Below, piece after piece: positions 1-56,943 of a DNA stretch of 64,000 bases. Position numbers and translations under genes: made by a program. Position 1 is the stretch's first letter, and every line of letters starts with the position of its first letter. The DNA lies in assembly GCA_900768535.1 (NCBI GenBank), contig CAAGDE010000026.1, forward strand, positions 50,535 to 114,534. The letters run 5' to 3'. The notes under the pieces are model-generated. The model made no database searches and was not told the DNA's origin. It saw nothing but the letters and a program-made list of their open reading frames with translations. The DNA is from Clostridia bacterium. GTDB taxonomy: Bacteria > Bacillota > Clostridia > Oscillospirales > CAG-272.

Positions 1-42
1 AAGGAGGACACCGCACAGCCGCACAATCCGTTCCCGCTTCAT
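1..42 (-). CDS. 5' end of an unidentified gene running off the window (MKRERIVRLCGVLL...)
   Basis: ATG at 42-40 with GGAGGGAGGGG about 6 nt upstream, 18 nt after the mutS2 stop. Only 14 codons are visible. Confidence 0.3.
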   Translation of the reverse strand, partial: MKRERIVRLCGVLL

Positions 43-60
43 GTGTGTCCCCTCCCTCCG

Positions 61-2448
61 TTATTTCAGTTCCACCACCGTCACGCCGCCGTCACCCTCT
101 CCGTACTGTCCCAGCCGGAAGTCCCTGACGCGTTTGTCCTTTTTCAGGTGCTGCCAAAGCGCGTTTTTCAAGGCACCGGTGCCCTTTCCGTGAATCAGGC
201 GGACCTTTCCGAAGCCGGCAACCGTTGCCTCGTCCAGATATTTGTCCACCTCCTGCCAGCCCTCGTCACCCATCAGACCGCGCAGATCGATCTCATCGCG
301 GAAATCGCGGTTGACCTCCACCCGGTAGCCGGCGGCGGGCGCGTGCCTGCCCTCCCGGACGATCTGCGGGGCATCGTCCAGCAGCTGCAGGTTCTCCTGT
401 TTGGTGCGGGTCTTGAGAATGCCTGCCTGCACCAGGACGTTTCCGCTCCTGTCCGGCAGTTCCAGCACCGTTCCCTCACTGCCGACATTGACCAGGTACA
501 CCCGGTCGCCCTTCCGGAGCGGTCGCGGCAGGACGTATTTCTCATCCTGCTTCCGCTCCTCCACCGGGTTGACCGCGTCGGCGTTCTTCCGCAGCTCTGC
601 CCGCACCGCGCGCCGTGCCTCGTCCAAGCCCTCGCGCAGCCGATCCTTTTCCTGTGCCTTCTTCGCCTTTTCCAGCTGCGCAAAGATGAAATCACTGGAG
701 GCTTTGGCGCTGTCCAGCATCTGCTGTGCTTTTTTCTGCTTCTGTTCGATCTCCCGCATGGCATCCTTACGCATCCGGGACAGCTCCGCCTCGGTTTCGG
801 CGCGCCTGTGCTCGTACTCGGTGCGCAGGCGCTCTGCCTCGGCACGGTTGCGGTCTGCCTCCAGGCGCGACTGCTCCAGCCTGCCGATGACCTCCTCGAA
901 CTGCCTGTGATCGGTGCTGACGTGCTGCCGTGCCAGCTCGATGATCTCATGCGGCAGTCCCAGCTTTTCGGAAATGGCAAACGCATTGGATTTTCCCGGC
1001 GTGCCGATGATCAGCCGATAGGTCGGCTTGAGCGTTGCCACATCGAATTCGCAGGAGGCGTTCTGCACCCCCGGCGTATTGAGCGCGTAGGTTTTCAGCT
1101 CGGTATAGTGCGTTGTCGCCACGCACATGGCGCCCGCCCGGCGGACCGATTCGATTACCGCCACCGCCAGCGCCGCGCCCTCCACCGGGTCGGTTCCCGC
1201 GCCAAGCTCGTCAAACAGGCAGAGCGACCGGTCATCGACCTGCTTCATGATCGACACGATGTTGACCATATGCGAGGAGAAGGTGGACAGCGACTGCTCG
1301 ATGCTCTGCTCGTCCCCGATATCCACGAGGATGCTCCGAAACACGCGCACCGACGAATCCGGATCTGCGGGAATGTGCAGTCCCGCCTGCGCCATGATGG
1401 AAAACAGCCCCAGCGTTTTGAGCGTCACGGTCTTACCGCCGGTGTTCGGTCCCGTGATAATCAGCGTGTCACAGCCGTCGCCCATGCGGATATCGGTCGG
1501 GACAACCGTCTCCTTCGGGATCAGCGGATGCCGTGCCCGGCGCAGATTGATCGCTCCGTCCTCGGTGATCTGCGGTGCGGCGCCGTTGATGCGGGACGAA
1601 AACTCCCCGCAGGCGAACCGGAACGCAAGCTCGGTGATGTTGAGGTAATCCAGCCGCAGGGATTCGGACGCCGTACTGACATCCGCCGACAGCGCAAACA
1701 GAATCCGCTCGATTTCATGCTCCTCCTTGGATTGGAGCATCCGCAATTCGTTGTTCGCCTCCACAACCGCCATCGGTTCGACAAAGATGGTGGCGCCGGA
1801 GGAGGAGGTGTCGTGAATCAGCCCCTTGATCTCGTTCTTGCATTCCGCCTTGACCGGCACGACATAGCGCCCGTTCCGCGTGGTCACCAGATTCTCCTGG
1901 AGCGCCTTGGAATAGGAGCCGCTGATATAGTGCTGCAGGGTCTCCTTGATGCGGTTGTTGGTGTCGCGGATCTTACGGCGCAGCTCGGCAAGCTCGTGGC
2001 TTGCTTCATCGGCAATCATGTCCTCGGACAGGACGGAACGCGTAATCCGCTCCTCCAGCGTCCGGTTGCAGAGCAGTCTGCCGAAGATTTCGTCCAAGGA
2101 GGTCGCGAAAGTCCGGTTGGTTTTGTTATAATCGGTCAGCGCCCTGGCGGAACGGAGCAGGCGCGCCACGTCCAGCAGCTCGCGCGTGGAGAGCATGGCG
2201 CCCTTTTCGGCACGTTCGCAGGCGCCGGAGACGTCCCGCACGCTCCCGAACGGCGGCATTCCCTTGGCGTCCGTCAGTCTGCGGGCGTCGGTCGTCTGCT
2301 CCAGCCGGCGGGCTATGATCACCGGGTCATCGGAAGGGGTCAGGCACCGACACATCCCCTTTGCGCCCTCGGTTGCCGCGCAGGATGCAAGCAGATCGCG
2401 GATTTTGTCGAATTCCAGTGTGGTCAGGGTCTTTTCGGAAAAGCTCAT
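61..2448 (-). CDS. mutS2: Endonuclease MutS2 (MutS domain V ATPase plus C-terminal Smr domain)
   Basis: 795-aa ORF with Walker A GPNTGGKT and a C-terminal Smr-like LIHGKGTGALK. Length is typical of MutS2. Confidence 0.95.
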   Translation of the reverse strand: MSFSEKTLTTLEFDKIRDLLASCAATEGAKGMCRCLTPSDDPVIIARRLEQTTDARRLTDAKGMPPFGSVRDVSGACERAEKGAMLSTRELLDVARLLRSARALTDYNKTNRTFATSLDEIFGRLLCNRTLEERITRSVLSEDMIADEASHELAELRRKIRDTNNRIKETLQHYISGSYSKALQENLVTTRNGRYVVPVKAECKNEIKGLIHDTSSSGATIFVEPMAVVEANNELRMLQSKEEHEIERILFALSADVSTASESLRLDYLNITELAFRFACGEFSSRINGAAPQITEDGAINLRRARHPLIPKETVVPTDIRMGDGCDTLIITGPNTGGKTVTLKTLGLFSIMAQAGLHIPADPDSSVRVFRSILVDIGDEQSIEQSLSTFSSHMVNIVSIMKQVDDRSLCLFDELGAGTDPVEGAALAVAVIESVRRAGAMCVATTHYTELKTYALNTPGVQNASCEFDVATLKPTYRLIIGTPGKSNAFAISEKLGLPHEIIELARQHVSTDHRQFEEVIGRLEQSRLEADRNRAEAERLRTEYEHRRAETEAELSRMRKDAMREIEQKQKKAQQMLDSAKASSDFIFAQLEKAKKAQEKDRLREGLDEARRAVRAELRKNADAVNPVEERKQDEKYVLPRPLRKGDRVYLVNVGSEGTVLELPDRSGNVLVQAGILKTRTKQENLQLLDDAPQIVREGRHAPAAGYRVEVNRDFRDEIDLRGLMGDEGWQEVDKYLDEATVAGFGKVRLIHGKGTGALKNALWQHLKKDKRVRDFRLGQYGEGDGGVTVVELK

Positions 2449-3260
2449 GTCTGATTCTGCCTCCGCATGGTGTGATAAAAATTCAGCGCTTCAAAGCCGT
2501 GCCCGACGTGGGAGAGGATGTACGTCTCCGCCGCCTTTGCAAAAGCCGCAAGGTCTGCGGGATCCTTCAGTTCGAACGAAAGGATACGCTCCAGGGGTGC
2601 CGTCCTGCAGTAGCGGAATGCCGCCGTGACCGCCGGGGAGAGGATGCAGATAATCTCCGCCTCTCTCGGATCGTCCGCATACGGGTCGGCGGACGGCACA
2701 GTCTTCTGCCGGTGCGTCCAGCAGTCCCGGCACCACAGGGCACCGTTCATCACGTCCAGATAAAACGGGTCGGAATCCCGCACGCCGCATCCGGAACATC
2801 CGGACAGCCCCGGCTCATATCCGGACAGCACTGCCGCACGGATTTCAAACGCGCCCTTGACCTGCTCCGGGGGACGGATGCCATAGGCGATTGCGTGCAG
2901 GGCGTTGAGCAGGAGCCGGAGCATTTCCCCCGCTTCCTCTCCCTCGTCCGTCAGCTCGCAGGTCAGCTCGCAGAGGTATGCGGCAAGGTTCATCCGATCC
3001 ATGTCCATGGTCAGACCGTAAAACGGCTGGTATGCGGTGCCGTCCTTGAGAATATAACGGATTCCCCGGCGGTAAAACTCAAAATTGCCGTAGGTATACA
3101 GCTGGCTGACCGACAGCTGGGTGGAGCGGATGGCGCGGCTCCCCTTGGAAAGAATGGTAATCCGTCCCTTTTCGGCGGTCAGGACCGACAGATAGCGGTC
3201 ATTTTCTCCCGCGTCCCAAACGCGCACCACCACGCCGTCTATGGATTCATGTACCGCCAT
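2445..3260 (-). CDS. recO: DNA repair protein RecO
   Basis: RecO-like N-terminal OB region (VVRVWDAGENDRYLSVLTAEKGRI) and a Cys-rich Zn module (CSGCG...CRDC). AAGGAGG lies 6 nt upstream of the ATG at 3260. The ORF-track extension to 3356 runs into a repeat and is not credible. Confidence 0.9.
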   Translation of the reverse strand: MAVHESIDGVVVRVWDAGENDRYLSVLTAEKGRITILSKGSRAIRSTQLSVSQLYTYGNFEFYRRGIRYILKDGTAYQPFYGLTMDMDRMNLAAYLCELTCELTDEGEEAGEMLRLLLNALHAIAYGIRPPEQVKGAFEIRAAVLSGYEPGLSGCSGCGVRDSDPFYLDVMNGALWCRDCWTHRQKTVPSADPYADDPREAEIICILSPAVTAAFRYCRTAPLERILSFELKDPADLAAFAKAAETYILSHVGHGFEALNFYHTMRRQNQT

Positions 3261-3280
3261 GGGCTCCTCCTTTAAGGGTA

Positions 3281-3350
3281 AGACCTTGAGACGCTGTCTC
3301 AAACTCTGCTTAGCCCCTTCTTGTAAGAAGGGGCTAAGAACACCAAGAAC
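3281..3350 (-). repeat. Intercistronic element A, copy 1 (two hairpins directly upstream of the recO RBS)
   Basis: About 70 nt, near-identical to 38134-38203. Hairpins are GAGAC-N3-GTCTC and CTTAGCCCCTTCTT/AAGAAGGGGCTAAG. Confidence 0.8.
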
Positions 3351-3402
3351 TTTCACTGCAGGGATTTTTTTACGAAAATCAGGGGGTATTTTGTGCTTTA
3401 TT

Positions 3403-3646
3403 GGGAAGCATTACGTGACTACGTTCGCCGATTTCGCCCTCATCCGGCGCTGGCGCACCACCTTCCCCACCCAGGGGGAAGGCTACTGCGGCAGTCCATA
3501 ATTGATTGGGACAGCGCCGATTGATAAGTGGAATTGAGAAGTAGGACATAAAAAACTTTGTACAGCCGAAAGAAGCCTTCCCCCGGGTGGGGAAGGTGGC
3601 GCGCCAGCGCCGGATGAGGGCGAAATCGGCGAGCGCAACCACGTAA
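3403..3646. repeat. Nested-palindrome repeat unit B (about 80-nt inverted arms around a roughly 90-nt spacer)
   Basis: Arm 3403-3484 is the reverse complement of 3574-3646. The whole unit, spacer included, recurs at 31418-31650. Confidence 0.85.
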
Positions 3647-3660
3647 CACAACCATCCACC

Positions 3661-3732
3661 GTAGCAGCCTTCCCCTTCGAGGGGGAAGGTGGCGCCGCAG
3701 GCGACGGATGAGGGCGAAACGGGCGAGCGCGC
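3661..3732. repeat. Solo, more divergent arm of repeat family B
   Basis: GCCTTCCCCTTCGAGGGGGAAGGTGGCGCC...GGATGAGGGCGAAAC aligns to the right arms at 3574-3646 and 31587-31650. Confidence 0.7.
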
Positions 3733-3775
3733 CATCGAAATTTCCACACCGATTCTGCCATCGACTGCATTTATA

Positions 3776-4657
3776 TTACTGCCTGTATCCGAAATCGCTG
3801 ATTCCGCGGGCACTGTCGCGCCAGTTTTCCTTGACCTTTACCCACAGGTTGAGGTAGACCTTGGTTCCGGTCAGGGCTTCGAGATCCTGCCGGGCATAGG
3901 AGCCGATGCGCTTGAGCGTTTCGCCGTTCTTGCCGACCAGGATCCCCTTGTGGGACTCCTTTTCGCAGAAGATCTCCGCGCGGATGCGGGTCAGGCTGTC
4001 CTCTTCCTTGTATTCCTCAATGACAACCGCAATGCCGTGCGGGATTTCGCGGTCAACGGTGCGCAGAATCTTTTCCCGGATGATTTCGGACGCAAGCTGG
4101 CGCTGGGTCTGATCGGTGATCATATCCTCCTCAAAGATCCAGTCGCCCTCGTGCATAAAGTGCCGGCATTCGTCCAGCAGCTCGTCCACGTTCTTTCCGT
4201 TTTTTGCGGAGATCGGCACCACTGCCGCAAAGTCGTGGAGCGCCGCATATGCCGCAATGGTTTCCGCAATCTGCTCCCGGCGGCAGAGATCGACCTTGTT
4301 CAGCGCCAGGATTGCCGGAATCTCCGCGCGCTTGAGCCGGTCAATGACCCGCTCCTCCACATCGCCGGGACGAAACGCCGCATCCGCCACCAGAATGACC
4401 GCATCTCCGTCCTGCATGGAGCCGGTGGCAACCTTGACCATATAATCGCCGAGCGAATTTCTGGCGTTGAAGATGCCGGGCGTGTCGATGAAAACGAACT
4501 GATCCTCTCCGCGCGTTTCAATGCCGAGAATGCGCCCGCGTGTGGTCTGCGGCTTGGAGGACACAATGGCGATTTTCTCGCCGAGGATGTTGTTCAGAAG
4601 GGTCGATTTCCCGACATTCGGGCGACCGACGATTGCAAAAAAGCCTGTACGTTTCAT
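3776..4657 (-). CDS. era: GTPase Era
   Basis: G1 GRPNVGKST, G3 DTPG, G4 NKVD and a C-terminal KH-like region. The start is placed at MKRTGF, with AAGGA upstream. Confidence 0.93.
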   Translation of the reverse strand: MKRTGFFAIVGRPNVGKSTLLNNILGEKIAIVSSKPQTTRGRILGIETRGEDQFVFIDTPGIFNARNSLGDYMVKVATGSMQDGDAVILVADAAFRPGDVEERVIDRLKRAEIPAILALNKVDLCRREQIAETIAAYAALHDFAAVVPISAKNGKNVDELLDECRHFMHEGDWIFEEDMITDQTQRQLASEIIREKILRTVDREIPHGIAVVIEEYKEEDSLTRIRAEIFCEKESHKGILVGKNGETLKRIGSYARQDLEALTGTKVYLNLWVKVKENWRDSARGISDFGYRQ

Positions 4658-4673
4658 GTGATTGTCCTGTTCC

Positions 4674-5120
4674 TTATTTTCCGAAGAATCCATTCGGATC
4701 CGATTGTTTGTCCAGAAGATCCAGCCGCTTGTCCGTTTGCACGTCCGTGACCTCGCAGAACGTGATTCTGCCGCTTGCACGATCCTCATACGCCAGAAAA
4801 ATGTAATGCCCGAACTGCGTGCTGAAGGTGTTTCCCCGATCCCCCTCGTTCCAGGTTCCGCGGTAGGTACGCAGGCGGGTCATGGTCAGGAGCGTCGGAT
4901 CGTGGGCAAAGTCGATCATATTCTCCACCGACAGCTCCGGCAGCGCCTCGGACTGTTTTTTTTCGGCGCAGTCGCGGATGCGGAAGAAGCTGAGGGGACC
5001 GAAAAAGGCAAAAAAGACGACCATACAGACAAAAAAGGTGATGACCTTGACATTCCTGCCCGCAAAGCCCTCCGGACGGACTGCCTCGCCGTCAGCCGGA
5101 CGTTTTTCTCCCGGGTTCAT
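4674..5120 (-). CDS. Hypothetical single-pass membrane protein
   Basis: 148-aa ORF with one hydrophobic helix (VITFFVCMVVFFAFFGPLSFF). Packed between ybeY and era with a 4-nt overlap to ybeY. No recognisable family. Confidence 0.55.
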   Translation of the reverse strand: MNPGEKRPADGEAVRPEGFAGRNVKVITFFVCMVVFFAFFGPLSFFRIRDCAEKKQSEALPELSVENMIDFAHDPTLLTMTRLRTYRGTWNEGDRGNTFSTQFGHYIFLAYEDRASGRITFCEVTDVQTDKRLDLLDKQSDPNGFFGK

Positions 5121-6698: not shown

Positions 6699-7865
6699 TC
6701 AGTCTGTCACATCAAATTCGACCTGCTCCGCGATGTCCTCAATACACAGAACCGTGCATTCCAGGATGACCTTCTCATCGGTCAGGGTCATAACGGTCGT
6801 GCGGGAGAGCAGCTGCGCGTTTTCGGCAAGTGCACGGAGCTCCGCCTCCAGCCGGTCATACGCCAGCGTGGCGGCTTCCGTCTGCGTCCGCTCCACCGGC
6901 TCCTCCCGCCACAGTCTGCGGAGCTGTTTCCGGAAGGATAGCGGCAGATTGCGCAGGAAGGGCAGATCGGGATGTGTTTCCGTTTCTATTATATCACAAC
7001 TGACTGCCTCATTTCCAGTGTTTTCTGAAATTTTTCCCGTAAAAGCGAAAAAATTCAACCACACGTCACCTTTTTCCGTGGCATAATAGACCTTTTCGGT
7101 GTCCTGCAGGGGGATTTCCACCGTCAACTGATGCTCTGTCCTTGCCGTCACCCGTCCTGCGGCACGGGTAAAGCGGCATCCGATGTTCTCATTTTCGAAA
7201 ATACCGCTGACCAGCAGGTCCCCGCGGCGGACCGCCTGCCCCGCCCGAACCACCGGATTGCCGCGGAACAGCTCAACCGTCTCAATCTGTCCGTCCGTCC
7301 GCGCGACAAGGTCTGCCGGGCGCAGCTGCTCCTCCCTGGGCGGCTTCACCTTTCTCTCCAGCACCTGCACCTTTGCAACCGTTCCCTCCATGTGAATCGA
7401 AATCCACGCAAGCCGGTCGGAGGCAAGCAGGACCCGGTTCTCCACTTCGCCCGCCGAAAAGCCGGGGAGATAGGAGCCGACGCCGAATCCGCTCTCCCCC
7501 AGCACCGCCGTCACCTCCGCCGCGCTCATCTCCCGGTTTCCCGTGACCCGGATATCCCACACGTACAGCCGGGAAACGATCAGAAGCACCAGTGCCAGCA
7601 CACCGCCCAGAATCAGACCGGGACGGCGCAGAATCCGTCCGGCAAGCAGAGGCAGTCCGCCGCGCCGCCCCTCGGAAAAGACCGCCTGCCCGCGCAGCCG
7701 GGGAAGGGATCGGGTGGCACAGAGCAGCCGGATCCCGCCCTCCGGATCGGTGTCAACTGCGGAAAACGGCAGATCGAGCCGCAGGAACGCGTCCAGCAGT
7801 CCGGCGGCGTGCTCCGCATCGGCGGAAAGCTCCGTATATCCGGAAAGAAAGAGAATCGGATTCAT
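6699..7865 (-). CDS. yqfD: Sporulation protein YqfD
   Basis: 388 aa with a central TM segment. Positioned yqfC-yqfD-phoH as in Bacillus and Clostridia. Confidence 0.8.
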   Translation of the reverse strand: MNPILFLSGYTELSADAEHAAGLLDAFLRLDLPFSAVDTDPEGGIRLLCATRSLPRLRGQAVFSEGRRGGLPLLAGRILRRPGLILGGVLALVLLIVSRLYVWDIRVTGNREMSAAEVTAVLGESGFGVGSYLPGFSAGEVENRVLLASDRLAWISIHMEGTVAKVQVLERKVKPPREEQLRPADLVARTDGQIETVELFRGNPVVRAGQAVRRGDLLVSGIFENENIGCRFTRAAGRVTARTEHQLTVEIPLQDTEKVYYATEKGDVWLNFFAFTGKISENTGNEAVSCDIIETETHPDLPFLRNLPLSFRKQLRRLWREEPVERTQTEAATLAYDRLEAELRALAENAQLLSRTTVMTLTDEKVILECTVLCIEDIAEQVEFDVTD

Positions 7866-9233: not shown

Positions 9234-10133
9234 TCAGTCCGGCTGTCCGGCGCTTCTCTGCACCGCAAGAACGGCTTCGGGGAGGTGCGCGACCGTATCC
9301 GAGGCGAGCATGGAAATCTCTCCCTTGTCGCGGGCGGCGAATTCCCCGGCAAGACCGCAGAGGTACGCGCCGAGCGCCACCGTCCGCACATCGGGCGGCA
9401 GATAGCCGAGCAGTCCCGCCAGCACACCGGACAGCACGTCTCCGCTCCCGGCGGTTGCCATACCGGGGCATCCGCGGTCGACCAGGAGGGTGTCCGTCCC
9501 GTCCGTCACCGTTGTGACCGCCCCCTTGAGCAGGAGCGTGACGGCATATCTTTTGGCAAAAGCTTCTGCCGGGGCAGTGGGAGACGCGGCAATTTCCGAA
9601 GCCGTTCTCCCGGTCAGGCGGGCAAATTCTCCGCAGTGCGGGGTAAGCACGACCCGGCAGGACGCCTCCGACAGGCGGTTTGTGCCAAGCTCCGCGAGCG
9701 CCCACAGACCGTCCGCATCAATCACAAGCGAGCCGGTGTAATGCGCCAGGAGCCAGTCCAGAATGCGGATGTTCTCCCGGCTTCTCCCCCACCCCATGCC
9801 GACCGCGACCGCGCGCCGACCGGTGATCAGTGCGGACAGGCCGGGTTCGTCAAACAGCATCTGTCCGTCCCGGTCGGGCATCGGGAACAGGGTGCTTTCG
9901 AGCAGCTGCGGCGCGACAACGGGAGCAAGTGCTGACGGCACGGCAAGCGTGGCAACCCCGCACCCGGCGCGCAGAGCGGACTGCGCAAGATTGGCAAGGC
10001 GCGGCGCACCGGAATACGCCATGCACCCGCCGACAATGGCGATATAACCGTAATCCCCCTTATGGGTATTCCGGTTCCGCGGCGGGAGCAGTGGGGCAAG
10101 CTCGGCGGCGGTTACGCGATGCCGCCCGGTCAC
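9234..10133 (-). CDS. nnrD: ADP-dependent NAD(P)H-hydrate dehydratase (YjeF C-terminal domain only)
   Basis: Motifs HKGDYG...VGG and AGSGDVLSG of the carbohydrate-kinase-fold dehydratase. Confidence 0.85.
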   Translation of the reverse strand: MTGRHRVTAAELAPLLPPRNRNTHKGDYGYIAIVGGCMAYSGAPRLANLAQSALRAGCGVATLAVPSALAPVVAPQLLESTLFPMPDRDGQMLFDEPGLSALITGRRAVAVGMGWGRSRENIRILDWLLAHYTGSLVIDADGLWALAELGTNRLSEASCRVVLTPHCGEFARLTGRTASEIAASPTAPAEAFAKRYAVTLLLKGAVTTVTDGTDTLLVDRGCPGMATAGSGDVLSGVLAGLLGYLPPDVRTVALGAYLCGLAGEFAARDKGEISMLASDTVAHLPEAVLAVQRSAGQPD

Positions 10134-31392: not shown

Positions 31393-31650
31393 ACCACCTC
31401 GAAGGGGAACTTGGGGTGGGAAGCCATACGTGATTGCGCTCGCCCATTTCGCCCTCATCCGGCGCTGGCGTGCCACCTTCCCCACCCGGGGGAAGGCTAC
31501 TGCGGCGGTTCGTAACTGATAGACACAGCGCCGATTTATAAGCAGGATTGAGGGGGGGATGTAACAAAATTTGCACAGCCGAAAGAAGCCTTCCCCCGGG
31601 TGGGGAAGGTGGCGCGCCAGCGCCGGATGAGGGCGAAATGGGCGAGCGTA
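31393..31650. repeat. Second locus of the nested-palindrome repeat family B (full unit plus partial extra arm)
   Basis: Arms 31418-31498 and 31587-31650 are inverted copies. The arms and spacer are homologous to 3403-3646. Confidence 0.85.
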
Positions 31651-36263: not shown

Positions 36264-36352
36264 TGGCGGAGAGGAAGGGATTCGAACCCTTGTGGGGTTG
36301 CCCCCAAACGGTTTTCAAGACCGCCTCGTTATGACCGCTTCGATACCTCTCC
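36264..36352 (-). tRNA. tRNA-Ser (anticodon UGA), CCA encoded
   Basis: Acceptor GGAGAGG/CCTCTCC, anticodon loop CTTGAAA, long variable arm TGGGGGCAACCCCACA and T-arm GGGTTCGAATCCC. Confidence 0.92.
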
Positions 36353-36503: not shown

Positions 36504-36544
36504 TTTTCAAGACCGCCTCGTTATGACCGCTTCGATATCCCTCC
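36504..36544 (-). pseudogene. Truncated tRNA-Ser copy (5' half up to the anticodon loop only)
   Basis: 34 nt identical to 36312-36345 and then near-identical to the tRNA 5' end. No T-arm follows. Confidence 0.7.
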
Positions 36545-36635
36545 GTATAAACGGAACTATGAAACTGTAATCTGAAAAAGCATCAAAAGAAAATGCCGGA
36601 TGCCCGGAATTCAGGTCCTTTGCAAAACCATGTTT

Positions 36636-36890: not shown

Positions 36891-38117
36891 TCATGCATGG
36901 TCTTCCAGCCAGCGCAGGGCTGTATAGGCGTAGACGGCGGTGCCGGGGGCGAGGGCGGCTGGGTCAAAGGTAACCTTGGGATGATGCAGCGGATGGACAT
37001 AGCCCTTTTCGGGTTGACCTGCCGCCAGTGCCAGCATAACGGACGGGACTGCCTGACTGACATAGGCAAAGTCCTCGGAGCCTGCCGAACCGGAGGCTCC
37101 GCCGCCACCGCTCTCCCGATTCAGCTGTGCCACGGTATGGATTCCGCCCTCGCCCAACAGCTCCCGTCCGTACCGATAGGCATCGGCTGACAGTGCTCCG
37201 TCATTTTTCAGGGTCGGACAGCCGCTGCCGAAGGTGACCTCCGCCACCGCACGGAATGCGGTTGCAATCCCTGCGGCAATGTCCGTCATGCGTTGTTTGA
37301 CCGTTGCGCGGACGTCCTCGTCAAAGGTGCGGAGGCTCCCCTTCATGACCGCTTCATCGGGGATGGCGTTTGCCGCCGTGCCTGCCTGCATGGTGCCGAC
37401 CGTCAGGACGGCGCGGTCATTCATTGCCAGCTCCCGTGCCGGAATTTCCTGCAGGGCGATGAGAATCTGCGCCGCCGCGGTCAGTGGATCGACGCCCATA
37501 TTCGGCATGGAGCCGTGACAGCCTTTTCCCCTGACGCGGATCTCGAAATAATCCGCCGCCGGGGCGCTGACGCCGGGGTCGGATACGATGACGGTACCCG
37601 GTTCAAACGGCATTCCCGCCATGACATGGATCATCAGCGCGGCATCCACCGGCGGATCCTCCAGCACGCCGGCACGGATCATATCGGCGGAGCCTTCAAA
37701 AATCTCTTCCGCCGGCTGAAACATCAGCTTGACGGTTCCGGCGATCTCTTCCTCGTGTGCCTTCAGCAGTTTTGCCGCGCCGAGGAGCATCGCCGTGTGC
37801 AGATCATGTCCGCAGGCGTGCATACAGCCGTTCTCCGACGCAAAAGCAATGCCGGACTGCTCGCGGATCGGCAATGCGTCCATGTCCGCGCGGAGCAGAA
37901 AGACCCGTCCGGGCTTCTTCCCTTCCGCAAGCACGACCAACCCCGCCCTGCCGCAGGGCTTTGGCGCATAGCCCATTTTCTCCAGTTCGGACTTCACATA
38001 AGCCAGCGTTTCCGTCAAGGCAAAGCCGGTCTCCGCGTGGGCGTGCAGGTATTCCCGCCATGCGTTGATGTCCTGCTTCATGTCCGCCGCTTCCCGCATC
38101 AGTTCTTCCGCTTTCAT
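36891..38117 (-). CDS. M20/M25/M40-family amidohydrolase (N-acyl-amino-acid amidohydrolase-like)
   Basis: Metal-binding contexts MHACGHDLH and LMFQPAEE. 408 aa. Confidence 0.88.
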   Translation of the reverse strand: MKAEELMREAADMKQDINAWREYLHAHAETGFALTETLAYVKSELEKMGYAPKPCGRAGLVVLAEGKKPGRVFLLRADMDALPIREQSGIAFASENGCMHACGHDLHTAMLLGAAKLLKAHEEEIAGTVKLMFQPAEEIFEGSADMIRAGVLEDPPVDAALMIHVMAGMPFEPGTVIVSDPGVSAPAADYFEIRVRGKGCHGSMPNMGVDPLTAAAQILIALQEIPARELAMNDRAVLTVGTMQAGTAANAIPDEAVMKGSLRTFDEDVRATVKQRMTDIAAGIATAFRAVAEVTFGSGCPTLKNDGALSADAYRYGRELLGEGGIHTVAQLNRESGGGGASGSAGSEDFAYVSQAVPSVMLALAAGQPEKGYVHPLHHPKVTFDPAALAPGTAVYAYTALRWLEDHA

Positions 38118-38133
38118 GCAATCAACTCCTTAA

Positions 38134-38203
38134 AGACCTTGAGACTCCGTCTCAAACTCTGCTTAGAACCTTCTTGCAAGAAGGTTCTAAGAACTCCAAG
38201 AAC
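38134..38203 (-). repeat. Intercistronic element A, copy 2 (directly upstream of the M20 gene RBS)
   Basis: Near-identical to 3281-3350. The long hairpin here is CTTAGAACCTTCTT/AAGAAGGTTCTAAG. Confidence 0.8.
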
Positions 38204-38264
38204 CTTTAACAAGGGGGCTTACTTATATTTTTCTCACAAATCGGGACATTATACGCGGTCAGTC

Positions 38265-40154
38265 TCATGTGTGGTTCTGCAATTGTTCACGGCTGAACTG
38301 GAGCGTGTAGAGCTTGTAATAGGCGCCTCTTTGGTGAAGAAGCTCCTGATGTGTCCCCTGTTCCCGGATTTCGCCGTGGGAAAGCAGAATGATCCGGTCC
38401 GCGTGCTGAATGGTGGAAAGCCGGTGGGCAACGATCAGCATGGTTCCGATGTTGCGCATCTTCTCCAGGGATTTCTGAATCAGCTGTTCGGTTTCGGTAT
38501 CGATGTTGGCGGTCGCCTCGTCCAGGATCATCACCGACGGGCGATGCAGGACGGTCCGCGCAAAGGACAAAAGCTGTCGCTGACCCGCAGAGAAGTTGTT
38601 CCCGCGCTCGCGCACCTCCTCGTCCAGCCCGTGATCCAGCCGGTTGATGAAGGCATCGGCGTTGACATAGCGGCAGGCTTCCATGAGCTCCGCATCGGTG
38701 AAGCGGTCATCCCGCAGGGCAAGATTGGAGCGGATGGTGCCCGAAAAGAGGAACACGCTCTGCAGCATTTGTCCGAACTGCCGGCGCAGGGCGGACAGGC
38801 GGATTTTGCGGACGTCGATGCCGTCAATCAGGATCTCCCCGCGCTGAATGTCGTAATTCCGGCACAAAAGCGACAGGATGGTCGATTTTCCGGCGCCGGT
38901 GGCACCGACAAAGGCAACCGTCTGCCCCGCCTCCACACGGAAGGAAACATCCCGGAGAACCCATTCGTCCGGCAGATAGGAAAACCAGACGTGACGGAAT
39001 TCGATCTCCCCGCGGAGGATGCCGGGGTCGATTGCGTCCGGTGCATCAACGATTTCCGGCTGCAGATCGAACACCCGGAAGATCTTCTCCGCCGAGGCAA
39101 ACGCCGACTGCAGCCAGTTGAACTGCTCCGCCAGGCTTTGAATCGGATTGAAGAACTTGGAGATGTACATATAAAACGTCACAACCGTCCCGGAATCGAT
39201 GATCTGCCCCATAAAGGAGAGCTCCCGGATATATCCCCGCCCGCCGAGGTACAGCAGGCACAGGATGGACGCGGTATAGAGCATATAAACGGTCGGGCGG
39301 AAGATGCTGAACACCAGAATCTGCCGCTGTTTCGCCCCTCCCAGCTTCCGGCTCCGCTCCTCAAACTCCGCCATTTTCGCGTCCTCGCGGTTGAAGATCT
39401 GCGTCAGCTTGATGCCGGAAAGGTTCTCGGAGAGGAAGATATTGATGGATGTGGTTCCGTCCTTCACCCGACGGTAGGCGCGCCGCGAGAATTTGCGGAA
39501 AATGAGCGTGAAAATGACGATGAACGGGACAAAGCAGAGGATCATCAGCGTCAGCGCATAGTTCAGGATCAGCATGGCGCCCAGCACGCCCAGGACGACA
39601 AAGACGTTTTTTGCAAGATTGACGATGATATTGGTGAACATCTGGGAAATCGCCTGCGTGTCGTTGGTCATCCGCGTGACCAGCGTTCCCACGGGAATGC
39701 CGTTCAGCTGTCCGTGCGAGAGTCCCTCAATGTGCAGAAAGAGACTTTCACGCAGGTCGGAAAGGATTCGCTGACCGGTCTTTTGCAGAATCAGCGACTG
39801 GAAATAGGTACTGACCAGCGAAAGAATCAGAACGGACGCGTAGACCGCGACGTAAATCCACAGCCGCGACAGCTCGAACCGCCCCTGAATCAGGCGCTCA
39901 ATCTCCCCCACGAGAAGCGGCGACACGATGTCATAGGCGATGGAGAAAAGCATCAGGAGTCCGACCAGCACGAACTGCAGGCGGTACGGCTTGGCATAGG
40001 CAAGCAGGCGGCGGATGATTTCGGAATCCTTCATCTTCCGGTCAAAACCGATTGCCTCTTTTTTGTTTTTCATCAGCGCGTAGGCAAGGATGAACACCGC
40101 AGCAAATATGCCGACGGTTGCACCGACGATCAGAAGCGGCAGGTACTCATGCAT
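38265..40154 (-). CDS. ABC exporter, fused permease-ATPase subunit (heterodimer partner 2)
   Basis: N-terminal 6-TM domain, Walker A GATGAGKST and signature FSAGQRQ. Confidence 0.9.
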   Translation of the reverse strand: MHEYLPLLIVGATVGIFAAVFILAYALMKNKKEAIGFDRKMKDSEIIRRLLAYAKPYRLQFVLVGLLMLFSIAYDIVSPLLVGEIERLIQGRFELSRLWIYVAVYASVLILSLVSTYFQSLILQKTGQRILSDLRESLFLHIEGLSHGQLNGIPVGTLVTRMTNDTQAISQMFTNIIVNLAKNVFVVLGVLGAMLILNYALTLMILCFVPFIVIFTLIFRKFSRRAYRRVKDGTTSINIFLSENLSGIKLTQIFNREDAKMAEFEERSRKLGGAKQRQILVFSIFRPTVYMLYTASILCLLYLGGRGYIRELSFMGQIIDSGTVVTFYMYISKFFNPIQSLAEQFNWLQSAFASAEKIFRVFDLQPEIVDAPDAIDPGILRGEIEFRHVWFSYLPDEWVLRDVSFRVEAGQTVAFVGATGAGKSTILSLLCRNYDIQRGEILIDGIDVRKIRLSALRRQFGQMLQSVFLFSGTIRSNLALRDDRFTDAELMEACRYVNADAFINRLDHGLDEEVRERGNNFSAGQRQLLSFARTVLHRPSVMILDEATANIDTETEQLIQKSLEKMRNIGTMLIVAHRLSTIQHADRIILLSHGEIREQGTHQELLHQRGAYYKLYTLQFSREQLQNHT

Positions 40155-42051: not shown

Positions 42052-42401
42052 CAGCTTCGCCGGACGGTCGCGCGGTATGTTGCCGTAAGGTATTACCGTG
42101 AGGAAAGTCCGGGCTTCACAGGACAGGATAGCTGATAACGTCAGCCGCGGGTAACCGCCGGGAAAGTGCAACAGAAAGAAACCGCCGCTTTTGCGGTAAG
42201 GATGGAAAGGCGAGGTAAGAGCTCACCCGTTCCCATGGTAACATGGGTCCGCTGTAAACCCTATCCGAAGCAACACCCCAGGGACGGCTTGTCCGGCATA
42301 TCGTCAGGGGTGGCACGGGAGAATCCTCCCGGAGCGTTCCGGCGACGGAGCGCGGAGATTGATGACCGTTCAAGACAGAACCCGGCTTACAGACGAAGCT
42401 G
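42052..42401 (+). ncRNA. rnpB: RNase P RNA, bacterial type A
   Basis: Universal motifs GAGGAAAGTCCGGGC, AGTGCAACAGAAA and ACAGAACCCGGCTTA. P1 pairing CAGCTTCG/CGAAGCTG. Confidence 0.93.
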
Positions 42402-42424
42402 CCCCCGCCCTGCGGGGGATTTTT
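42402..42424 (+). terminator. rnpB terminator
   Basis: CCCCCGC/GCGGGGG stem followed by ATTTTT. Confidence 0.8.
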
Positions 42425-55503: not shown

Positions 55504-56943
55504 TCACCCCTCAAACAGCGCGCGCACAAACTCGGTGCGGTCGAATTCCTGCATATCGTCCAGCTTTTCGCCGACGCCGATGAACTTGACCGGAATGTTC
55601 AGCTCCTTGCGGATGGAGATCACGATGCCGCCCTTTGCCGTGCCGTCCAGCTTGTTCAGAATCAGCCCGGTCAGTGCCGCGGCGTTCTTGAACTCCTTTG
55701 CCTGTATAATGGCGTTCTGTCCGGTGGTCGCGTCCAGAACCAGCAGGTTTTCCCGCGCGGCGCCCGGCAGCTCACGGTCGATGACGCGGTTGATCTTTGC
55801 CAGCTCATTCATCAGGTTGGTCTTGTTGTGCAGCCGCCCCGCCGTGTCGATGATCAGCACATCGGCGTGCTTGTTCTTTGCGGCATGGCAGGCGTCAAAC
55901 ACCACCGCCGCCGGGTCACTGCCCTCACTCTGGCGAACCAATTCCACCTTTGCCCGCTCGCACCAGACCGCCAGCTGATCGATTGCCGCCGCGCGGAAGG
56001 TATCCGCCGCCGCTACGATCACCCGCTTGCCTTCCTTGCGCAGCCGGTTGGAGATCTTGCCGATGGAGGTCGTTTTTCCGACCCCGTTGACACCGATGAC
56101 CAGAATCACGGACGGCTCCGTGTCCAGCTTCAGTTCCTCGCCCTCGCCGATCATCCGCTCCAGGATGCTCTGCAGCGCGCCCATGACCTGCTCTTTTTCC
56201 TTGAGTCTGCCGTCCCTGATCTGCTCCCGCAGCTCCTCAATGATCTCCTCGGACGCATTGACGCCGACATCCGCGCAGATCAGCAGCTCCTCCAGCTCCT
56301 CCAGAAGATCCTCATCGACCTTGACGAAATTCTTCAGCAGATCGTTGATCTGTCCGAACAGCGCGTTTTTGGTTTTGGTCAGCCCCGCTCTGACACGGCT
56401 CCAGAAGGAGGTTTTCTCCTTCTTTTTTTCTTCCGCCGTCAGCGGTGCCTCCTCCGGGACGGCTTCCGATGTAGCCTCGGAGGCGGGCTCCGGGGCAGGC
56501 TGTGCCTCCTCCTTCGGCGCTTCCGGTGCAGGCTCCGGCTTCTTCTCCGGCTCCGGTTCGGGCACCTTTTCGGGCTCCGGCTCCGGGGTCAGCTCCGGCT
56601 CGGTGACGGGAATCACCTCCGGGGCGGACTCTGCCGCTTCCTCCGGCTTTTCGGGCACCGCGGGAACCTCCGGCGGAACCGGATCCTCCTGTTCCTCCGT
56701 CAGATCCGGAATGATCGGCTGCAGGGGCGCCTCCGGTGCGCCGGGCTCGGTGGGAGCAACCGGCACGTCGGGAACAACCTCCGGTGCCTGTTCGGGTGCC
56801 TGTTCGGGTTCCGGCTCCGGTTCGGGCGCAGGCTTAGGCAGCGGCTCGGTTTCCTCCGTTTCCGGCTCCGCTGCTGCGGTCCGCCCGACTGCGGCTTCCT
56901 CTTTTTTCTTCTTTCTGCCGAAGAGCTTATCCAAAAATCCCAT
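55504..56943 (-). CDS. ftsY: Signal recognition particle receptor FtsY with a long acidic Pro/Glu-rich N-terminal region
   Basis: NG domain with GVNGVGKTT, DTAGR and LNKLDG. Start MGFLDKLFG overlaps the smc 3' end by 17 nt. Confidence 0.92.
   Translation of the reverse strand: MGFLDKLFGRKKKKEEAAVGRTAAAEPETEETEPLPKPAPEPEPEPEQAPEQAPEVVPDVPVAPTEPGAPEAPLQPIIPDLTEEQEDPVPPEVPAVPEKPEEAAESAPEVIPVTEPELTPEPEPEKVPEPEPEKKPEPAPEAPKEEAQPAPEPASEATSEAVPEEAPLTAEEKKKEKTSFWSRVRAGLTKTKNALFGQINDLLKNFVKVDEDLLEELEELLICADVGVNASEEIIEELREQIRDGRLKEKEQVMGALQSILERMIGEGEELKLDTEPSVILVIGVNGVGKTTSIGKISNRLRKEGKRVIVAAADTFRAAAIDQLAVWCERAKVELVRQSEGSDPAAVVFDACHAAKNKHADVLIIDTAGRLHNKTNLMNELAKINRVIDRELPGAARENLLVLDATTGQNAIIQAKEFKNAAALTGLILNKLDGTAKGGIVISIRKELNIPVKFIGVGEKLDDMQEFDRTEFVRALFEG

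Follow-up and report, generated by a model that had tools for sequence, protein, structure and literature searches.

Two unrelated genes in this genome, recO and a gene for an M20 peptidase/amidohydrolase, are each preceded by nearly the same hairpin-forming sequence, placed directly in front of the ribosome binding site (RBS), which raises the question of whether this sequence regulates its neighbours or has merely been inserted next to them. The question was addressed in a window, i.e. the whole stretch of 64,000 nucleotides of the Clostridia bacterium contig that was analysed, and in related loci. We consider it probable that both sequences belong, as solo units, to an undescribed interspersed, insertion-type REPIN/MITE-like repeat family of uncultured gut Clostridia and are not regulators of the adjoining genes. 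The family is new; its broad class, that of small structured interspersed repeats, is already known.

Two solo units in the window

A repeat search of the window returned a direct repeat of 88% identity, and a covariance-model scan run with the filters off recovered the same two full copies as the only ones present. The initial annotation had described two copies in the same orientation between co-directional genes, flanked by era/recO and by an ABC exporter and an amidohydrolase, and both its positions and, by Pfam, its gene assignments were correct (Table 1). Each unit is ~80 nt long and lies on the minus strand, and an 18-mer common to both, CTAAGCAGAGTTTGAGAC, occurs exactly twice in the window for a shuffle expectation of 0.00. 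The 3' end of the unit is 5 nt away from the RBS of recO and 2 nt away from that of the M20 gene, and 57 nt separate the stop codon of the ABC exporter from the 5' box of copy 2. The described position beside the downstream RBS thus holds for both copies, but copy 1 is ~420 nt distant from era, the space between them being occupied by another, unrelated repeat family.

Read from 5' to 3', the unit opens with a 5' box (GAAAGTTCTTG), which is followed by hairpin H1 of 13 bp, hairpin H2 of 11 bp and a 3' box (AAGGTCTT). The sequence of H1 is variable, a linker GCAGAG joins H1 to H2, and CCCC often follows the 3' box. In both window copies, which are singlets, the fold comprises H1 and H2 (z = -3.75 for copy 1 and -3.1 for copy 2); the H1 stem, of 13 bp, is perfect and closes a 4-nt loop, and H2 has the general form AGA-G-UUUGAGAC-NNN-GUCUCAAG-G-UCU. 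Three compensatory stem changes had been claimed between the copies: two H1 pairs indeed differ (CC/GG versus AA/TT), the third pair is identical, and everything else that differs is in the loops of H1 and H2 or in the 5' box.

A further motif, AAATACCCCCTGAT or AAGTAAGCCCCCTTGT, was observed 5' of the 5' box in copies 1 and 2 and in the reverse unit of locus L034, and in copy 1 a 22-nt insert separates it from the 5' box. Judging from these copies, the unit may be ~20 nt longer at its 5' side in the lineage that carries this motif.

Table 1. Positions of units, neighbouring genes and other features in the window and in related loci
Sequence	Feature	Coordinates	Strand	Remarks
Window	Direct repeat	3280-3353 and 38133-38206		repeat search
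Window	Copy 1, solo unit: 5' box, H1, H2, 3' box, ACCC tail	3276-3355	-	93.9 bits, E = 1.5e-24
Window	Copy 1 5' box TGAAAGTTCTTGGTGTT, conserved unpaired block	3339-3355	-	two family alignments
Window	Copy 1 H1, perfect 13-bp stem CTTAGCCCCTTCT/AGAAGGGGCTAAG, loop UACA	3309-3338	-	fold and per-pair covariation
Window	Copy 1 H2, AGA-G-UUUGAGAC-AGC-GUCUCAAG-G-UCU, contains 3' box AAGGTCT	3281-3307	-	fold and covariation
Window	RBS of recO, GGAGG	3266-3270		
Window	recO, downstream of copy 1	2445-3260	-	Pfam RecO_N and RecO_C
Window	era, upstream of copy 1	3776-4789	-	Pfam
Window	Copy 2, solo unit	38129-38208	-	90.5 bits; same site in L043 and L006
Window	Copy 2 H1, CTTAGAACCTTCT/AGAAGGTTCTAAG, loop UGCA	38162-38191	-	fold
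Window	Copy 2 H2, loop GGA	38134-38160	-	fold
Window	RBS of M20 gene, AAGGAG	38126-38131		
Window	M20 peptidase/amidohydrolase, downstream of copy 2	36891-38117	-	Pfam
Window	ABC exporter, upstream of copy 2	38265-40154	-	Pfam
Window	Extra motif 5' of the 5' box	3378-3391; 38209-38224	-	
L034	Extra motif 5' of the 5' box	1370-1383		
L003	Doublet	2808-3041		covariance-model matches
L004	Doublet	2741-2970		covariance-model matches
L007	Doublets	50-284; 9439-9669		covariance-model matches
L034	Doublet	1286-1539		covariance-model matches
L048	Doublet	1055-1247		covariance-model matches
L004	Degenerate doublet	1627-1852		
L034	rsmB end, stop TGA inside H2	1526-1545		
L024	APH-family kinase end, stop TGA inside H2	7748-7761		
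L028	ORF end, stop TGA inside H2	367-380		
L067	H2-less unit, rlmN stop codon in H1 loop	3570-3635		
L048	AAGGTCTTAGC (3' box) three times before recO RBS	1230-1275		
L004	Partial extra AACCTTGAGAC adjoining doublet	2700-2745		
L006	Reverse-complement H1 and H2 joined to forward copy	1-45		start of contig
Window	GC-rich repeat	3402-3640; 31417-31650		
Window	GC-rich repeat, partial arm	3680-3735		
Window	Terminator-like hairpin in GC-rich repeat	3596-3576	-	
L024	GC-rich repeat	3130-3185		
Window	tRNA-Ser(tga)	36264-36352	-	
Window	Partial duplicate of tRNA-Ser(tga)	36504-36549		
Window	RNase P RNA, class A, bacterial	42052-42405	+	238.5 bits
Window	Short-period GC-rich direct repeats	56522-56847		

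A dispersed family at gene junctions

An exact search for the 18-mer in 185,579 species-representative genomes gave three real loci, one in a Eubacteriales MAG (L001) and two in the Clostridiales MAG UMGS1865 (L003 and L004), the matches L002 and L005 being rejected as chance occurrences. A looser pattern added contigs from human-gut metagenomes, among them both loci of the window as recovered in other samples (L019, L043 and L006) and the new loci L007, L024, L028, L034, L021 and L022; some 25 further matches to the pattern were rejected as chance matches within a coding sequence, and L033, which holds the H2 core only (26 bits), is a doubtful member. A covariance model built on 12 copies found 21 full copies at E <= 1e-9 in the element-bearing loci, about 20 of them distinct, and zero copies in 32 unrelated control loci totalling 202 kb. 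The carrier contigs, from gut metagenomes and MAGs, are labelled Clostridiales, Eubacteriales or Clostridia bacterium and belong to an uncultured gut clade. The portable, REP-like structured module that had been proposed from two copies is therefore borne out by the presence of the same family next to unrelated genes in several genomes. BLAST against plasmid and phage collections returned no similar sequence, four matches from a pattern scan of viral contigs all failed the covariance model, and a literature search found nothing comparable for uncultured gut Clostridia. The start of contig L006, where an inverted H1 and H2 are joined to the forward copy, is probably an assembly artefact caused by the perfect palindrome.

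The nucleotide similarity between the window and the element-bearing loci is confined to the element, which has a GC content of 41–47% in surroundings of 56–62%. Copy density is lowest in the window, with 2 in 64 kb, and highest in L007, with 5 in 14.9 kb. Copy 1 is 91% identical to the forward unit of L003, which lies at another locus in another genome, but only 80% identical to the forward unit at the same locus in the relative L048 (and 82.5% to copy 2), so that similarity does not track orthology.

The usual form in relatives is an inverted doublet of 190–255 nt, in which the 3' boxes face outward and the 5' boxes face a spacer of 30–88 nt; it fills the gene junction, and its inverted arms of ~80 nt end in GGGG(A/G)AAGACC...GGTCTT(C/T)CCCC. 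Degenerate doublets occur in L001, where two lie in tandem, and in L004. The L034 doublet, taken as RNA, is predicted to form a duplex of ~80 bp (-134 kcal/mol, z = -12.5), the end of which lies immediately ahead of the rlmN RBS; in the predicted fold of the L048 doublet the outer H2 halves pair together and the H1 hairpins stay local. Among the variants, L028 has an additional hairpin of 26 nt within H1 and one copy in L007 is without H1. The 3' box is repeated before recO in L048, and a partial extra copy adjoins a doublet in L004; on the evidence of these sequences, local tandem duplication readily affects the outer end of the unit.

All copies are located at gene junctions, some of them overlapping the last codons of a gene, and a gene boundary always lies within ~0–15 nt of the 3'-box end. 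At five junctions (window recO, L048 recO, M20, L003 AMP-binding and L034 rlmN) the 3' box is turned toward the RBS and start codon and the unit is sense, at a distance from the RBS that varies between 1 and 14 nt. At ~9 junctions (L048 era, an L003 transglutaminase-like gene, L004 transaldolase, L004 1859-2458, two in L007, L024 APH, L028 and L001) it is turned toward a stop codon and the unit is antisense, and some copies lie between convergent genes, past terminators. A unit or doublet may abut or overlap a stop codon on one side and an RBS on the other. A stop codon TGA inside H2 ends three open reading frames, and in L067 the stop codon of rlmN lies in the H1 loop of a unit lacking H2; genes of the opposite strand thus read into the element, and the repeat has rewritten their last few codons.

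Relatives of the era-recO locus were reached through RecO homologues. Without the unit, the spacer between the two genes measures 12 nt in L046 (RecO 85% identical to that of the window), 15 nt in L060 (80%), 24 nt in L050 (76%) and 1 nt in L053 (74%); with the element, it measures 226 nt in L048, where a doublet is present (RecO 83%), and 515 nt in the window. The rsmB-rlmN junction likewise consists of 8 nt, CGATAGGAGGGACTATG, in L067 and L069 and of a 254-nt doublet in L034, which has retained the original TAGGAGG at the right junction. Two loci with M20 orthologues (L056 and L058, 84% and 82% identity) have different upstream regions and no unit. Since orthologous junctions occur without the unit, and are only 1–24 nt long where the gene pair is kept, the units are insertions. 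At both era-recO and rsmB-rlmN the empty site is an overlap of stop codon and Shine-Dalgarno sequence (TAAGGAGG and TAGGAGGG) and the insertion took place at that overlap, the flanks being too diverged for a target-site duplication to be read; the outer flanks of units are often TA or TT. The empty sites already hold an RBS, so the RBS found beside sense units is host sequence, and the initial suggestion that the module may carry its own RBS is contradicted both by these sites and by at least nine other copies whose 3' end abuts or overlaps an opposite-strand stop codon or a CCCC tail.

These contexts bear on two readings of the hairpins. A role as an intrinsic or bidirectional terminator, or as an attenuator, would suit stable, GC-containing hairpins that in several loci lie just past a stop codon. 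We hold it to be extremely unlikely, as the annotators had for a standard terminator: neither hairpin is followed by a U tract on either strand, neither a terminator-like nor a promoter-like site was predicted at either window copy, L001 and L024 possess a separate canonical terminator beside the unit, and doublets sit inside the conserved operon junctions era-recO and rsmB-rlmN, where termination would be harmful. A gene-specific cis-regulatory leader for recO and the M20 gene (a riboswitch, an attenuator or a protein-binding leader) draws on the conserved structure directly before the RBS in both window copies, and is largely refuted. The neighbours are unrelated over ~12 loci, in keeping with the doubt already expressed about a gene-specific riboswitch, many copies are antisense or at gene 3' ends, and orthologous leaders do without the unit. 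Moreover, the unit has no conserved internal loop or junction for a ligand pocket and the possible helix between its 5' and 3' boxes shows no covariation. Rfam at gathering thresholds found only RNase P and one tRNA in the whole window and no family at the element, and around copy 1 a threshold of E <= 10 yielded only microRNA noise (E > 0.8).

Covariation of the hairpins and the folding strand

Covariation was scored on 20 distinct full copies (24 pairs, 470 pair cells) in an alignment fitted to the covariance model, which favours structure. The proportion of paired cells was 95.3%, and 12 of the 24 pairs were changed on both sides, in 47 cells, a result reached by 0 of 500 shuffles; slid-register controls were 27–62% paired. 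RNAalifold run on an independent MAFFT alignment returned the same two hairpins with six compensated pairs. The H2 strands occur as TTGAGAC/GTCTCAA, TTGGGAC/GTCCCAA, TCGGGGC/GCCCCGA, GTGAGGC/GCCTCAC and TGCGGGGC/GCCCTGCG, and variants of H1 begin with CTTAGCCCC, TTTAAAACC, CTCAAACCC or TTAGAAAAC. Both stems therefore vary and yet stay paired, and the selection on hairpins first proposed from two copies now has far stronger support: we conclude from the aligned copies that the hairpin structure of the family is under selection.

G.U or U.G occurs in 43 pair cells and A.C or C.A in 6, an excess which indicates that one strand, the one written here, is the folding strand, whether it folds as RNA or in the form of single-stranded DNA. 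The same G.U pairs on the forward strand are seen where a copy is antisense to local transcription, so that the asymmetry belongs to the family and does not stem from local mRNA. A palindromic double-stranded site for a host protein (a nucleoid protein, gyrase or IHF, as proposed for BIMEs, or else a recombinase) is very unlikely. It would account for the strong conservation of the unpaired blocks, i.e. the two boxes and the linker, and the layout of the doublets does resemble BIMEs; but the stem sequences are free to vary as long as they can pair, and only one of the strands tolerates G.U (G.T), which argues for a folded single strand over duplex read-out, and no candidate protein is known.

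Other candidate features were examined and rejected. The closing helix between the 5' and 3' boxes is complementary in the consensus and 87% paired, with zero both-side changes and with variants that break the pairing. Mimicry of the H2 5' strand by the 5' box, suggestive in L048f, L003r and L007f, was dropped because its registers are inconsistent. A small open reading frame on the reverse strand (SD-like GGGGA/GGAGA, then UUG) is conserved neither in length nor in residues and is scrambled by the stem covariation.

The reading that most directly competes for these data is that of a host-selected intercistronic RNA module, in which the sense unit would be a 5' stabiliser or processing determinant, the doublets would be RNase III sites uncoupling the cistrons, and the hairpins would be conserved for an RNA function at each locus, mobility being secondary. 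The close approach of sense units to the RBS at five independent junctions agrees with it, as do the G.U excess, which fits RNA pairing, and the predicted long duplexes of the doublets, which stop just before the RBS. A precedent exists in the intergenic stem-loops of Ruminiclostridium cellulolyticum, which direct selective RNA processing and stabilisation (PMC4423207, PMC10311766). In addition, within the perfect stems copy 1 and the copy at the same locus in L048 differ only by fully compensated pairs, three in number, which suggests, if the two copies are truly orthologous, that structure has been selected in place, an outcome unexpected for a purely selfish decaying remnant. We nevertheless judge this reading unlikely: the orthologous junctions of most relatives work without the unit, ~9 copies are antisense to the sole adjacent gene or lie between convergent genes past terminators, those antisense copies keep the family's G.U asymmetry, and the distance to the RBS varies. 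Anything inserted into a junction of 1–24 nt will in any case come to lie next to an RBS.

Affinities and probable origin of the units

REPINs, BIMEs, Correia elements and ERIC are well studied in Proteobacteria. Classical REP sequences are 20–40 nt long with a single hairpin, unlike the present unit of ~80 nt with its two different hairpins and conserved boxes, and the arms of active REPINs are usually near-identical, unlike those of the doublets described here (71–84% identity within a doublet), which counts against a REPIN-like reading. Shared with REP, REPIN and BIME elements are the largely extragenic palindromic units, the inverted doublets with a spacer (six of them, in L003, L004, L034, L048 and, twice, L007), the singlets, the tandem clusters (L001) and a conservation of structure over sequence. 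By definition, a REPIN is an inverted pair of REP sequences that encloses a spacer and folds in single-stranded DNA or mRNA, singlets being regarded as immobile remnants (PMC3116915), and REP/REPIN elements are associated with RAYT transposases (Bertels & Rainey 2011, PMC3116915; PMC3337134). A GTAG or CGTC tag is conserved at one end of the REP palindrome (PMC3733652); GTAG/CTAC is absent from all 20 copies examined here, and CGTC/GACG, missing from 8 copies, is elsewhere a chance product of the H2 loop. The REPIN literature that we found concerns Pseudomonas and enterobacteria, whereas the present host belongs to the Clostridia.

Correia/CREE elements of Neisseria and ERIC of enterobacteria are bacterial MITEs acting at the RNA level (PMC2649163, PMC2229807, PMC10969869). 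Like them, the present elements are small (<500 bp), non-coding junction insertions with long inverted arms, present or absent among related genomes and able to supply gene ends; no sequence similarity is shared with them, and each arm here consists of two local hairpins with compensatory evolution. Typical Correia and ERIC insertions have a TA target duplication, to be compared with the frequent TA or TT flanks noted above. The layout of the doublets, with inverted arms of ~80 nt, is that of REPINs and BIMEs or else of a MITE with long terminal inverted repeats, solo window units having no such repeats, and no insertion sequence sharing the ends of the element was present in the loci examined. 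As the family departs from the REP definition in some respects and, as a MITE, comes with neither parent insertion sequence nor target duplication demonstrated, it is placed in the broad class and in neither of the named families.

Modular hairpin-forming intergenic repeats are also known from Firmicutes as the pneumococcal BOX, RUP and SPRITE elements (PMC3049150), which are transcribed with neighbouring genes; their sequence and module layout are unrelated to ours, and SPRITE is terminator-like with a U tract, unlike the present unit. The R. cellulolyticum stem-loops (PMC4423207, PMC10311766) are stable, lie between co-transcribed genes and come from a related group of Clostridia, which makes them a plausible model for a co-transcribed sense unit, but they are locus-specific and not dispersed repeats with conserved boxes and an insertion history. 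An integron attC site was also considered and rejected. Such sites have R''/R' core sites (RYYYAAC ... GTTRRRY) around an imperfect palindrome and occur in cassette arrays; the start of the unit, GTTCTTGG/GTTCTTAG, does not fit GTTRRRY, and the neighbours are core genes (era, recO, rsmB and rlmN), not cassettes.

If the units are indeed members of a REPIN/MITE-like family, as we consider probable, the hairpin covariation and the tolerance of G.U on one strand would be most economically explained by recognition of the element as a folded single strand while it is copied. The obvious model, a conjectural one, would be copying on single-stranded DNA by an HUH/Y1 transposase of the RAYT or IS200/IS605 type. 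Strand-specific hairpin conservation with G.T tolerated is a likeness to IS200/IS605-derived palindrome-associated elements (PATEs) and HUH hairpin recognition on single-stranded DNA, which would account for the covariation with no need for an RNA role. On the other hand, an arrangement in doublets or TIR-like ends is atypical of IS200/IS605, no cleavage site or target tetranucleotide was identified, and no transposase was identified in the loci examined, tnpA and tnpB being absent from all of them. Units and doublets have been inserted into very short gene junctions at or beside the overlap of stop codon and Shine-Dalgarno sequence, where they sometimes supply a new stop codon; solo units such as the window copies would be immobile remnants of doublets. 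That both window copies are sense and beside an RBS counts against the present reading, since it also fits a selected RNA role.

Being sense and between co-directional genes, the window copies are probably co-transcribed, which would put a stable structure of two hairpins immediately ahead of the RBS of recO and of the M20 gene, and doublets in relatives would fold into long double-stranded RNA. Correia and ERIC elements are transcribed along with their neighbours, and their long hairpins serve as targets of RNase III or RNase E, with reported effects on mRNA processing and stability (PMC2649163, PMC10969869); by analogy, either structure of the present family, which would likewise be co-transcribed, could plausibly alter mRNA processing or stability as a side effect. 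A stronger version, in which the host exploits the mobile unit as an intercistronic RNA module, appears to us quite unlikely. The doublet being symmetric, transcription in either direction would give an antisense arm followed by a sense arm; under such exploitation the arms would form a long duplex, RNase III would cut it and uncouple the two cistrons, and the two hairpins of the sense unit would be left as a protective 5' cap right before the RBS. The solo sense units ahead of recO and the M20 gene would on this view have been domesticated as 5' stabilisers and maintained where they are by compensatory evolution. Were the units to affect mRNA processing, they would offer these Clostridia a natural, portable means of re-tuning operon expression.

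Uncultured Clostridia dominate the human gut, and the covariance model of the family lets such junction repeats be annotated in gut MAGs. The family explains puzzling long spacers in conserved operons (era-recO and rsmB-rlmN) as well as altered gene 3' ends, and it calls for caution, as hairpin covariation in a repeat is not evidence for a riboswitch.

Several other features of the window were recorded. The unrelated repeat family between copy 1 and era is GC-rich and ~235 nt long with inverted arms of ~60 nt (CGCTCGCCGATTTCGCCCTCATCCGGCGCTGGCGCGCCACCTTCCCCACCCGGGGGAAGGC), its window copies are 88–93% identical, one of them contains a terminator-like hairpin, and it has no Rfam match at gathering thresholds. 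Conspecific contig L062 (RecO 99% identical) has a unit identical to copy 1 and is without the adjacent GC-rich repeat of ~245 nt, so that the latter is a recent insertion or deletion. Part of tRNA-Ser(tga) is duplicated 192 nt away as a 46-nt segment of 96% identity; a partial tRNA duplication can mark an integration site. The RNase P RNA gene lies on the plus strand, and a further segment, made up of GC-rich direct repeats of short period (TCCGGCTCCGG...) that are spaced at 12 and 18 nt, is probably repetitive coding sequence.
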